A stretch of 64,000 nt of DNA, from positions 176,266,001-176,330,000 of the forward strand of contig OZ024743.1 in the NCBI GenBank assembly GCA_964016885.1, in the 5' to 3' direction. Below, one piece after another: positions 26,608 through 52,978 of the stretch (position 1 is the stretch's first letter; every line of letters starts with the position of its first letter). Under the pieces are notes generated by a model. The model had not been told where the DNA came from. It made no database searches and saw only the letters and a program-made list of their open reading frames with translations. The stretch is from Eledone cirrhosa (taxonomy: Eukaryota). The position numbers and the translations under genes are program-made.

Positions 26608-26732
26608 ATAGGAAAAGAGTCAGGACCCCGACGGCTGAGCGCCGGCCGTTTCGACAGCTAGATCTGAACTGTTCGGATGTAGCTGTCGAAACGGCTGGAG
26701 CTCAGCCGTCGAGGTCCTGGCTCTATTCCTAT
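26608..26732. repeat. GC-rich palindrome carrying hammerhead 3' halves (PLE-type inverted terminus)
   Basis: Arms of ~53 bp. Right arm GAAA-CGGCTG-gagct-CAGCCG-TC at 26688-26710, followed by (TA)n. Confidence 0.75.
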
Positions 26733-28811
26733 ATATATATATATATAACAAATACAAAAACCTATATCCAGAGAGGACTCGATAGGTGTTATGTATATAT
26801 ACTTATATATAAATACGTGCTGCAAAAGAGGATTTCCCTCCGATATGAATACATATATGTATGTACGTGTATGTGTATGTATGCGCACTTGTCTTTGTGT
26901 GTGTTTGTGTAATAATGGATACAAGACTGCTTTAAATTTATCTTTCTTGCAAAGGTTTTCCATATTTTTGGGGAGTTCAATGTAGTCTGTTTAGAACAGA
27001 AATATTCTTGAATCCATATGTTCCAAACAGAATCCATCTGTTCCAAACATATATGAAGCAAAAAAAAAAAAAAAAAAAATTAAGAGGATTTGATAAAATT
27101 GATAAAACTACAACACGGACGCGCATTGAAGAAAGTGTTATATATTGAATAATGCGTAGACTTTGGAATACTCCATTTCATTTCTTTATACTTAGTGGTA
27201 GATTAAATAAATATAAGACTTCCAATATTTCGAATATTTTGAATACTGTTGTATGGAATTATTCAAATTTCCCATTTATAGCTTACAGGAGATCTTAAAA
27301 GATATTTGCAAGCTAGAAATATTTTAGTCTCTTTAACGAGCAACTGGAATTTTTTCTGTTGTAAAAAAAGTAGACTGCTACATATAAAGAAAAGCTTTTT
27401 TTTAATAACAGAGACAGCAATAGACTAATGTGTTTGAATATGGCATTTAGCCAAAGAATATTAAAAATTAACGTCATGTATGTCAGGATACCGCATTAGC
27501 AAGAGAATTTTGAGAAGCATGAATTCAAACTATGACCGCATCACATTAAAATGTAAAGACTTTTGCTCTAATACTGTGATTTTGATTCTCGGACCAGGCT
27601 GCGCATTGAAACCTTGAGCAAGACACGTTGCCGCATTCCACTGTATCCTTGAGTAAGACATTTTATTTCACGTTGCTCCAGTTCACTGTATCCTTGAGCA
27701 AGACACTTTATTTTACACTGCGCCAGTCCATTCAGCTGGCAAATATCGGTTGTACCTGTAATTCACAAGGCCAGACTTGTCATACATTATGACAGACTGA
27801 CTCTCCCTGAGAGCCATTAAATATTCATTTCACGAGTAGGCAGTTCCGTTGATTGAATCAACGGTAACAATCATCTTCGGGAGCGACTGTAGGCCACTAT
27901 TGTTGTTGCAGTTGTCAGCTTCTTGATCAAGGAGGTCTATGTTTAAAAATGATCTAGCTGTGAACAACTCCACCATTTGAGGGTTATCTAAGATAGCCTT
28001 TCCCAATGAATCTTTCAATAATTATTCAAACATGAGTGTGGAATTTATGGTAATTTCACTTCTATTTTTAGTAACTCTAACGTCTAATTATAGACACCAA
28101 CAATCATTCACATTACTTCAACCACGTCACTTTTAATGCGTAATTTGAGATGTAACTCCTTCCTCATCCACACAGCCGGTCATTGCTCTGCAATACATTA
28201 TTAATGTCGGTATATAATTAATACGTAATGTTATCCTATAAATCTTACATTCAGAGAATGTGCAAATACACACAAGTATAAACACGTATAGACGTAAGGA
28301 GCGACACAAACTGTTATATACTCATAGATGCATACAATAGAATATATAACAATATATATATAACAATATATATATATATATATATATATATATATATATA
28401 TATATATATATACATTTATGTATGTATATATATATATATATATATATATATATACATTTATGTATATATATGTATATATATATATTTTTTTTTTCAATCA
28501 CATATATTTTTAATCACATATATTTTTATTTGTTTGACCCGAATTACTTGGTCGTTTTTTTTGCTGTGCGGATGATTGTTTAACCATCGTCTCAGTGTGT
28601 TTGGCCTTTAACGTATGTTGTAGCTCTGGTTCATCTGAATCATTGAGCGCTTGCCACACATCTCGGAAGTTGTTTTTCGTTAATTCTTAAGCCGAAATAC
28701 GATTCTCGCTAATTTATATTTGTATATATATATATATATATATATGTTTATCCCGGGTTCAATCAGGGGTAACCAAAGTAAGTAAGGTACTCAATACATA
28801 GCAGAGTATAA

Positions 28812-28942
28812 ATATTTAATATAAAAATTGGCTTCTACAGGACTAGAACTGTCTCATTCGGAGGAAATCGTTAGGAATGCCCGATGATTTCCTCCGAATG
28901 AAACATTTCTAGTCCTGTAGAACTCATTTCTATATTAAATAT
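28812..28942. repeat. Palindrome of two divergently oriented degenerate hammerheads (family H2)
   Basis: ttctacaggactagaactgtctcattcggaggaaatc mirrored by gatttcctccgaatgaaacatttctagtcctgtagaa. Confidence 0.8.
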
Positions 28943-28975
28943 ATATATATAAAGCAATGTTTTATATATATATAT

Positions 28976-29713
28976 ATCGTTCCTGTGTCAGTGTTGAACA
29001 AAAAGGTGACGTGGTTGCCTTAACACCGTACGGCATAAATTCAGGCTGTTCAGTTTGTTTACAAACGAACAAAGCGGGCGCTATAATAAGCGTCCGCTAA
29101 ACTGATACGTACATATATGTATGTGTACCTGTATGTATATATATATATATGCATGCTACTGTACGTCTGTATACATACATGTATGTACGTATACATACAT
29201 ACTTACATTTAAGTAAGTGCCGAACGAAGAGTGAGAAATGAAATTTCGTTTTCATTTTATTACAACTCATCGTTTTCAGTGCGCCTGAGCGATTTAACTC
29301 ACTCGATATGCAAATTAGGTTGCTCAGCCGTTAATTTTGATAAGGAAAGTATATACTTTCGAACGTTCAACCATCTGGCAGAAGGGTATACGGTGCTGAT
29401 GATAGCTAACAAGCTTGAAACTAGTACATCGTTCCTGTGTCAGTGTTGAACAAAAAGGTGACGTGGTTGCCTTAACACCGTACGGCATAAATTCAGGCTG
29501 TTCAGTTTGTTTACAAACGAACAAAGCGGCGTTATAATAAACGTCCGCTAAACTGATACGTACATATATGTATGTGTACCTGTATGTATATATATATATA
29601 TATATATATATATATATATATATATATATATATATATATATATATATATATATATATATGCATGCTACTGTACGTCTGTATACATACATGTATGTACGTA
29701 TACATACATACTT
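28976..29713 (+). mobile_element. Retrozyme / Penelope pseudo-LTR-like element: 452-bp unit plus partial second unit, in (TA)n
   Basis: 28976-29203 is repeated at 29428-29713, with the hammerhead at the junction. Confidence 0.75.
29390..29432 (+). ncRNA. Minimal type I hammerhead ribozyme (predicted cleavage after GUA at 29426)
   Basis: ACGGTG-CTGATGA-T-AGCT-aaca-AGCT-T-GAAA-CTAG-TA-CATCGT: 6-bp stem I, 4-bp stem II, palindromic stem III. Confidence 0.85.
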
Positions 29714-51153: not shown

Positions 51154-51839
51154 TCTGTTAGAACACGAAAAGTGTGAAACAACAGAATGTTCACTTTTCG
51201 TGTTCTAACATATATGCCTAACATCTTCATAAATTTTTCGGGGATAGCCGTGGTGGTGGTGATCGTATGTCATTGGCTAATTTTCAACCAATCAGAGTAA
51301 GTGTTGATATATATATATATATATATATATATACTATTCCCCCTCTCTCTATATATATCTTACGCTTTCGCTTTACACTCCTCCCCTTCAATAACACATT
51401 TCCCCCTCTCTATATATCTCTTCCACTGTTACTTACGCCTGTTTCTCTCTATCTGTTCCGTCTCTATATATATATCTCTCTTACTCTTTCGCTTTGCACT
51501 CCTCCCCTTCAATACCATCTCTCCCCCTCTCTATATATTTGTTACTCTATCGCTGCACGCTCCTCTTTTTCAATATATCAATTACACACGCTTTACACTC
51601 CTTTATCCCCAGCGCCCCTATATATACACCCCCCTCCCGCATCTATATTTTAATGTTCCGTTGCACCGTGAATATATGTGTCTATATATATATACATATA
51701 TATTGTATATACACATTCATGTATGTGTATACACACTCATGTATGTATATACACTGGTTTTATGTGTGTATTGTAAATTTGTACTGTTAAAACACGAAAC
51801 TAACATTCGATTGACACTTTGATTACCTGTACAGGCAAT

Positions 51840-51889
51840 AGTTATTAGAATGCTGTTGAAGTGTGTATATATTTTTGGGGGACATCCTG
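51840..51889. mobile_element. Tc1/mariner-like single terminus
   Basis: ...ttttgggggacatcctg followed by TA. Confidence 0.4.
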
Positions 51890-52766
51890 TATATACACAC
51901 ATTATATATAATACAATAAACAGATAAATACACACATATATATATGAGCTTATTTAATTATAAATATTGTGAATTTTATATATATTGTGAATTTTATATA
52001 TATAAATGGCTTCTACAGGACTAGAACTGTTTCATTCGAAAGAAATCATCATAATATTGAGAGGGGGGACTAGATAAAATATTTCAAATCAAATGTGTAT
52101 AAGTTATAAGTTAAAATGTATAAATAGAGACGATAGTGGAGGTATATCTGTTTAGTGGAACAGTAGACGATAGAATTAAATACAGACGAGAATCTCCCTT
52201 TAATGAAACAGCAGACGATAGAATTAAGGCAATTTAAATTTTAAGCATTTGCATTTCATCGTTACGGGGTCGATAAAATAAAATACCAGTAATACACTGT
52301 CACTATAAGTAGACGACTTTCAAATTGAATTGTTGGTTCCATTTCTTTAGTATTTTCAATTGTAGTTATCTACTTAAAAAGCGTTACACGGTTAGAGACA
52401 TAATTCGTAAGTTATATCTTCCCTATTAAACCATTGCATTATTTCGCCTACAATATAACAAAAATGAAATGTTCTTTAAAGAAACAGGAATATAACTTTA
52501 TAAAAAAAAAAGTTGCATCCGCTTCTTTTATCATTGATAATTTTTTCGTTTTAATATTAATTGTTTTTTGTAGTTGTTTATATTAAAAATCTTACTGTAA
52601 TATTTACTTAAACGAAGGCAGACATCTAAACTTATAGATTAATCTTGAGCGAAGGACTAGATAAATCTCTCTCTCTCTCTCTCTATATATATATATATAT
52701 ATATATATATATATATATATATATATATATATATATATATATATATATATATATATATATATATAT

Positions 52767-52978
52767 AACGAAGAATGATAACATTTCAAGCAAAGAGTTT
52801 AATTAGGTAATGACTTACAAATTTGTTTCAGTATATATTTAATATAATATTAATATATTTTGTAATATTATTAACTAATTATTATAATTAGCGCTTCAGG
52901 CTTTGTCTATATACTGAAACAAATTTGTAAGTCATTACCTAATTAAACTCTTTGCTTGAAATTTTATCACTCTTCGTT
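52767..52978. repeat. ~70-bp-arm palindrome next to (TA)n carrying hammerhead 3' halves
   Basis: GAAA-CAAATTTG-TA at 52916-52929, mirrored at 52816-52829. Confidence 0.75.

Follow-up and report, generated by a model that had tools for sequence, protein, structure and literature searches.

What are the short palindromes that lie beside (TA)n microsatellites in a 64,000-nucleotide (nt) stretch of Eledone cirrhosa DNA (contig OZ024743.1, positions 176,266,001 to 176,330,000; hereafter the window), and how does a palindrome of this kind arise? An original prediction, made from the letters alone, had picked out seven inverted repeats with hammerhead ribozyme motifs in their arms and had read them as a diverse ribozyme-bearing retroelement population in TA microsatellites. 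With 37% G+C, the window is AT-rich animal DNA in which microsatellites abound. All seven inverted repeats (el1 to el7, Table 1) are present, with arm identities of 78–99%; el3 and el5 proved wider than first drawn. We conclude that they are very probably dead, severely 5'-truncated insertions of several Penelope-like families of the Hydra clade, each likely consisting of two head-to-head complementary DNA (cDNA) copies of the element's 3' end. The retroelement reading is backed by tails on one side of the palindromes and by the end of a protein-coding region inside el6.

One-sided tails and ribozyme motifs

Each element has the order microsatellite, palindrome, a tail of 60–90 nt on one side only, microsatellite; the tail was absent from the original prediction. 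Contact with (TA)n had been claimed for most elements and was found: five of seven lie within 3 nt of a run of at least four TA units, el5 is 12 nt away and el3 has no such contact. Positions within 4 nt of the edge of such a run make up 1.5% of the window, and contact is also seen in two of the six other inverted repeats of the window, which served as our comparison set. About a dozen such stumps occur in the 64 kb.

The tail belongs to the element, because the el2 tail recurs at 38.5 kb (75% alike) and contigs pile up over the el6 tail. Bin depth is 482,256 over the el6 tail versus 423 beyond the other arm; this is summed depth, which gives no copy number, and run X1 possibly comes from the same sample as the window. 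Loose contig ends at 44081 reveal the same asymmetry in el5. A tail on one end only is family-shared for el2, el5 and el6, where it measures 66–68 nt; the tails of el1, el3, el4 and el7 are judged one-sided from motif and spacing. The motif is TGAGTRCYYT, whose four matches in the window all sit in tails, in sense orientation.

Inverted arms of 60–160 nt between TA flanks could also belong to miniature inverted-repeat transposable elements (MITEs) with TA target duplications, whose terminal inverted repeats hold GAAA motifs by chance or capture. The window does contain a TA-flanked inverted repeat (37660–37850, containing nested internal hairpins but neither ribozyme nor tail) that resembles a true MITE. 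For the seven palindromes, we regard this explanation as extremely improbable. It is opposed by the one-sided tails, by el2-family copies with a single arm at three loci, and by el6-family copies with other centres (position 44501 is joined to 44859 in three contigs), all of which agree with the earlier remark that the elements look like MITEs without following MITE logic. Complete ribozymes above shuffled expectation and a retroelement reading frame end in the el6 spacer, both described below, also speak against it, and for el2 and el6 the MITE reading is already contradicted.

The motif GAAA-stem III-NUH had been reported from both arms of every element. With a strict descriptor, at least one arm matched in five of the seven elements and both arms in only two; with a version relaxed after the sequences were seen, the counts were six and four. 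The chance of a relaxed match in a shuffled arm was 0.012–0.069 per arm. None of the six other inverted repeats matched the relaxed descriptor, and one of six matched the loosest form, GAAAN. All arm motif matches point outward, the sole inward match being the palindromic ACCGGT in el6. That the arms are hammerhead ribozymes is only partly true: el2 (decayed), el4, el5 and el6 have a core, whereas el1, el3 and el7 lack one. The arms of these three end inside stem-loop II; as far as their sequence tells, they are 3' halves that are unable to cut. An intact core was found in the right arm of el6, CAGAAGA in both arms of el4 and UUGAAAA, a U3-A8 variant, in both arms of el5. In el2 the descriptor fails in both arms through changes private to this copy: CTGATGA is restored in three sister copies and in aligned contigs (more than 99% of depth at 43956–43957), and four sister arms or copies yield an intact fold, with a 5-bp stem I and a 4-bp stem III. 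Of the type I minimal hammerhead, these pseudo-long terminal repeat (pLTR) remnants retain a complete form in el6, a variant form in each of el4 and el5, a form intact at the level of the family in el2 and a 3' half in el1, el3 and el7.

Motif frequency, which the original prediction had named as a way to overturn it, exceeds the shuffled background: the window has three complete type I motifs with no core mismatch versus none in each of eight local shuffles of the whole window, and five with one core mismatch versus 0–1. The Rfam search that had been proposed gave no hammerhead match in the window at the gathering score, and none among the best 150 of 189 matches at E ≤ 1, which were only microRNA look-alikes of hairpins or microsatellites. 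The motifs are truncated or minimal. A covariance model made from other organisms' motifs picked up 29390–29432 (E 2.4e-5) and 43946 (E 0.01), whereas el6 reached only E 0.57 and el2 E 6. Monomer folds of the motifs were no more stable than shuffles, as is expected because these are dimer-type motifs. Possible extra hammerheads with the variant cores CAGAAGA and UUGAAAA lie at 3826–3893 (+) and 6015–6070 (+), which suggests that these cores recur in the window.

Probable relation to Hydra-clade Penelope-like elements

Positions 44683–44757 (minus strand) of the el6 spacer encode the C-terminal 25 codons of a Hydra-clade Penelope open reading frame (ORF), in sense with the tailed arm and upstream of the ribozyme. 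When the six frames of the window were searched with a C-terminal Hydra-type profile, made from 42 of 59 proteins, this was the one significant match (independent E value 1.5e-6; the next was 3.1). The peptide, seen in el6 only, ends in N.R.EL...CPH, that is, a CxH motif after conserved E and N. The contig majority at 44750 (86,914 of 86,950) turns the Gln codon of the el6 copy into the conserved Leu. By its sequence, el6 is a tailed copy that extends upstream as far as the ORF end and is fused head to head with a shorter copy that has no tail. A long and a short arm are resolved in both el6 and el2, and since all motifs face outward, the arrangement is that of a 5'-truncated inverted copy placed head to head.

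Related loci were pulled from metagenome contigs with a pattern of core, GAAAC and tail motif. Most of the resulting 68 loci (L numbers) are chance matches with no hammerhead fold; eight passed a strict filter, and about 15 distinct ones, chosen by eye, were used. As the loci were selected on the tail 10-mer, its conservation among them is by construction. A scan of viral contigs gave three loci, which were unused in further analysis. On L018, a frameshifted ORF is followed directly by a minimal hammerhead and an el1-like tail. This ORF is 67–79% identical to full-length proteins with RWK, DKT, CxCx5C, CxxC and CxH, and its relatives are reverse transcriptase (RT) proteins of 600–750 residues; Pfam did not recognise its pieces. 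These five motifs are marks of the Hydra clade, according to the parts of PMC8557442 compared. The full-length L018 relatives have the RWK, DKT and CxCx5C linker and lack CCHH, as Hydra-clade proteins do, and the window spans none of these regions. L013 has the same architecture of palindrome and one-sided tail in another organism, and eight bystander inverted repeats in termite-like loci also have outward hammerheads.

Several observations weigh against assigning the palindromes to this clade. At the el6 spacer the full-length profile gave an independent E value of only 0.96, and the C-terminal profile was built post hoc, after that weak match. The ORF tie is limited to el6, the other six elements having none; for these we infer the clade solely from their tails and targets. 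Profile searches of the window and a Pfam scan of 131 of its 248 candidate frames gave no Penelope RT or endonuclease core; in the Pfam scan RT appeared only in an RTE-type long interspersed nuclear element (LINE) and a second LINE, with no GIY-YIG domain. Of an ORF with RT and GIY-YIG linked to the repeat, the window shows only the last 25 codons, in el6; such a link is seen in the related locus L018. The TGAGTRCYYT count exceeds chance only modestly (four versus a mean of 1.33; 5 of 100 shuffles reach four), and the 10-mer also ends non-Hydra families (termite-like loci, L041 and L046), so it is no proof of clade. The el5 tail lacks the motif, that of el7 is degenerate, and the tails measure 60–90 nt versus a published 30–40 nt. 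Finally, no empty-site joint that would expose a target-site duplication was seen among the 15 joints listed (215 more exist), and microsatellite flanks mask duplications.

Junctions, the tail stem-loop and palindrome formation

For several elements the junction had been placed within stem II or the core, or a little upstream of these, which is the case in five of seven; the el5 and el6 junctions lie 18 nt and at least 75 nt upstream of C3. The further proposal that ribozyme hairpins template the fold-back was not borne out. Across 20 palindromes (seven from the window and 13 from metagenome loci, with junction positions read by hand), 11 junctions fell in 740 nt of ribozyme footprint (0.015 per nt) and nine in 340 nt upstream (0.026 per nt; p = 0.23). 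The test is small, and el1, el3 and el7 have no readable template upstream of the junction; there may be a weak junction hotspot at the ribozyme. Short arms break near the ribozyme because the GAAA is only 45–64 nt from the element's end. Since the arms run through the cleavage site, the templates were uncleaved.

These data bear on a rival route to the same elements, in which the first cDNA folds back at the ribozyme stems to make the second arm and the endonuclease then cuts the new double strand before the tail hairpin. Self-priming at junction palindromes has been proposed (PMC3846280, in the part compared). Junctions within the ribozyme footprint (five of seven in the window and 11 of 20 overall) are what this route would give, yet their rate shows no excess there, either overall or in the window alone (p = 0.68), and el6 and eight other junctions lie 13–84 nt upstream. 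In its favour, similarity breaks off within about 7 nt of C3 in all four copies of the el2 family. X1 depth also drops 4–5-fold just upstream of the el6 ribozyme, but X4 does not share this drop and depth does not measure copy number. The el6 junction, far from the ribozyme, has a 5-nt microhomology that is compatible with an intramolecular event. A tandem-family copy at 37.9 kb, in contrast, is inverted yet non-palindromic: its tailed piece ends a few bases short of the start of the other piece, as expected if both came from one RNA, and because the pieces do not overlap, cDNA fold-back cannot make this copy. Two primings on one RNA are therefore favoured over fold-back for this copy, on the arrangement of its pieces. 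Overall, we consider fold-back rather unlikely.

In four of the seven tails, the TGAGTRCYYT motif closes a stem-loop that opens 4–6 nt past the arm end. The strict form, opening with RCTC or RCGC, occurs in four of seven tails versus 7.6% of 249 YGAGY sites; a permissive hairpin score did not separate the tails from background. Across 10 examples, 78.5% of the cells are paired, with two-sided change at three pairs and 1–2 of 500 shuffles as high, a figure that is optimistic because these rows had been selected on the presence of the hairpin. In el1, L018 and el3, minimum-energy folding gave no preference to the tail hairpin. This covarying stem-loop, 4–8 nt beyond the short-arm end, is a candidate reverse-transcription start signal. 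Neither the tail stem-loop nor twin priming was found described for Penelope elements in the literature searched, which did not include subscription journals, Repbase notes or the supplements of PMC11167929 and PMC4209133.

Further tail-like features were noted elsewhere in the window. A tail stem-loop with a 6-bp inner stem follows a heavily decayed hammerhead-like stretch at 28570–28655 (+), and another with a 4-bp inner stem lies at 6372–6400 (-). At 300–560 (+), a decayed hammerhead with a very long stem-loop II is followed by a tail stem-loop (467–505) and (TA)n, in a non-palindromic setting. Two microsatellite-centred palindromes (45274–45390 and 6565–6696) each have a TGAGTACT-like word shortly outside one arm and may be decayed members.

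How the preferred head-to-head insertions might form can be sketched as follows. The element's GIY-YIG endonuclease would nick both strands of the (TA)n tract. With uncleaved pLTR RNA as template, reverse transcription would then be primed by each nick, in one case at the tail's far end and in the other 4–8 nt before the tail stem-loop. Both cDNAs would stop early, and their 3' ends would be joined, through a short microhomology where the junction is readable (5 nt in el6). The ribozyme would be a passenger, part of which falls in every short arm. In vitro, PAc, a Poseidon element from Anolis, cleaves both strands of AT-rich DNA, uses uncleaved RNA as template and has two start sites that define a tail (Frangieh et al. 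2024, PMC11167929, in the part compared); by analogy with these, we infer that the two end points seen here are RT start sites. Hydra-clade elements would then end in a conserved covarying RNA stem-loop (RCTC-stem-loop-stem-TT-GAGY, then RCTCT) that would be bound by the dimeric protein and would set the two start sites, 4–8 nt before and 30–50 nt after it, and twin priming from both (TA)n nicks on one RNA would build the palindromes. We put this forward as a possible, still tentative model; twin priming has one informative copy as its base, which counts against it.

The tandem family raises another possibility, that the palindromes are self-propagating short ribozyme RNAs of the retrozyme type, whose hairpin form is itself transcribed and retroposed. 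The window has a retrozyme-like partial tandem (28976–29720, unit of 452 nt, one complete ribozyme) that starts at its cleavage site, and animal retrozymes have been reported as Penelope-like derivatives (bioRxiv 10.64898/2026.07.22.740005, in the part compared). Its 5' end, 1 nt off the predicted cleavage site, is a hint that the tandem's ribozyme cut in vivo. A second, degenerate hammerhead-like stretch lies near 29340–29375. For the palindromes themselves, we consider a retrozyme-like origin very unlikely: three of the seven are coreless, none is repeated whole in the window, and sister copies differ in their centres.

Other features of the window and comparison with known systems

Table 1. 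Palindromes, tails, hammerheads and related copies (window positions)
Feature	Position	Strand	Remarks
el1 palindrome	26608..26732		arms of 62 nt; coreless 3' half of a hammerhead (GAAA, 6-bp stem III, GUC)
el1 tail	26528..26607	-	stem-loop opens 26602; TGAGTACTCT at 26574-26583; far end by eye
el2 palindrome	28812..28942		decayed complete type I hammerhead per arm; short arm from about C3
el2 tail	28745..28811	-	motif 28784-28793; common to 38.5-kb copy
el3 palindrome	29990..30181		68-nt arms, 56-nt spacer; 3' half hammerhead only
el3 tail	30182..30247	+	TGAGTACTCT at 30200-30209; no hairpin found
el4 palindrome	38143..38284		full fold on minus strand 38162-38216, core CAGAAGA
el4 tail	38285..38375	+	degenerate stem-loop, opens 38290; GAGC at 38334
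el5 palindrome	44115..44340		U3-A8 core variant in both arms; palindromic loop III
el5 tail	44055..44114	-	shared within the family (depth, loose ends); TGAGT motif absent
el6 inverted repeat	44427..44934		arms 143 and 161 nt, 204-nt spacer
el6 right-arm complete minimal hammerhead	44863..44900	+	motif search
el6 left-arm hammerhead	44461-44498	-	GAAA altered to GGAA
el6 tail	44362..44426	-	stem-loop opens 44422; TGAGTGCTCT at 44398-44407
el7 palindrome	52767..52978		71-nt arms, 70-nt spacer; 3' half hammerhead only
el7 putative tail	52979..53065	+	motif with 2 mismatches at 52996-53007
el2-family single-arm tailed copy	38450..38592	-	sequence comparison
el2-family single-arm copy	43946..44010	+	contig majority restores CTGATGA
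el2-family single-arm copy	51985..52050	-	cut at U4 of core
Tandem monomer	28976..29427	+	452 nt, partial tandem; starts 1 nt after predicted cleavage site
Complete minimal type I hammerhead, outside palindrome	29390..29432	+	6-bp stem I; palindromic loop III
Tandem-family copy	37877..38131		inverted piece (matches 29216-29270) joined to direct piece (matches 29024-29211); no overlap

Two long inverted repeats have no recognised hammerhead (55888–56846, 214-nt arms at 99.5%; 43094–43551, 62-nt arms at 98%). The RTE-type LINE has a near-intact ORF of 1076 aa at 17878–21108 (-) and a second, broken copy at 8400–10370 (-). The second LINE, frameshifted and with an RT, lies at 10937–14456 (+); its C-terminal region presumably resembles the restriction-like endonuclease clades (R4/Dong-like). 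Large satellite arrays with a 43–47-nt unit occupy 48572–51154 and 56850–64000. Among the metagenome loci, the termite-like contigs L033, L035 and L039 have up to three or four hammerhead palindromes per 4–8 kb, and their families also end in TTGAGTRCTCT, without a stem-loop. L041 (3022–3352) and L046 have a different Penelope-type ORF end, which we take to be NRDEG-like, upstream of a hammerhead without loop III and with the same terminal 10-mer.

Because such stumps resemble MITEs, escape Rfam and are dense here, the Penelope content of a genome is easily undercounted in annotation. The origin of Penelope inverted copies and one-sided tails has been named as an open question (PMC8557442). 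The fixed spacing from short-arm end to stem-loop, together with one non-overlapping inverted copy, suggests a specific cis element and a twin-priming model, both open to testing; if the stem-loop is indeed a start signal, it would be a defined cis element through which the formation of Penelope inversions could be tested directly.

The architecture as such has been described before: in the parts of the cited papers compared, to which all of the following refers, earlier work reports inverted pLTRs that are 5'-truncated and tailed on one side, as well as minimal hammerheads and (TA)n targeting. The Hydra clade of Penelope-like elements (PLEs) with a C-terminal endonuclease (EN+) has (TA)n targets and hammerheads with U.U closing stem II, and includes Hydra-1_Obim from Octopus bimaculoides (Craig et al. 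2021, PMC8557442). Shared with the window are the (TA)n target, minimal hammerheads with U.U closing stem II and a palindromic stem III, the C-terminus LN.R.E...C.H at 170–200 nt upstream of the ribozyme, and the 5'-truncated inverted copy, there in Penelope-13_HM. By eye, about 12 of 23 residues are alike between the end of Hydra-1_Obim and the el6 peptide, and the same stem-loop ends two of six Hydra consensuses (Hydra-2_Amil and Hydra-2_Ajap). The window differs in having only stumps, of several unrelated families in 64 kb, with tails of 60–90 nt; the U3-A8 and CAGAAGA cores are absent from the Hydra table of PMC8557442, and its compared parts do not mention the tail stem-loop.

The inverted pLTR unit of EN+ Penelope elements likewise has head-to-head pLTRs, a tail on one only and junction palindromes (Arkhipova et al. 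2013, PMC3846280). Rotifer pLTR copies have 8–10-bp target duplications and 31-bp tails, whereas the present copies lie in microsatellites, where no duplication is readable. Metazoan PLE minimal hammerheads share the short palindromic helix III and the U3-A8 covariant, and occur as dual motifs 100–700 bp apart on opposite strands (Cervera & de la Pena 2014, PMC4209133). In contrast, el1, el3 and el7 retain the 3' half only. With PAc the palindromes share two end points that define a tail, an uncleaved RNA template and an AT-rich target. [quoted passage not shown] The likeness to non-LTR (long terminal repeat) retrozymes applies to the tandem, which has one complete ribozyme only, whereas the palindromes are inverted and not tandem.

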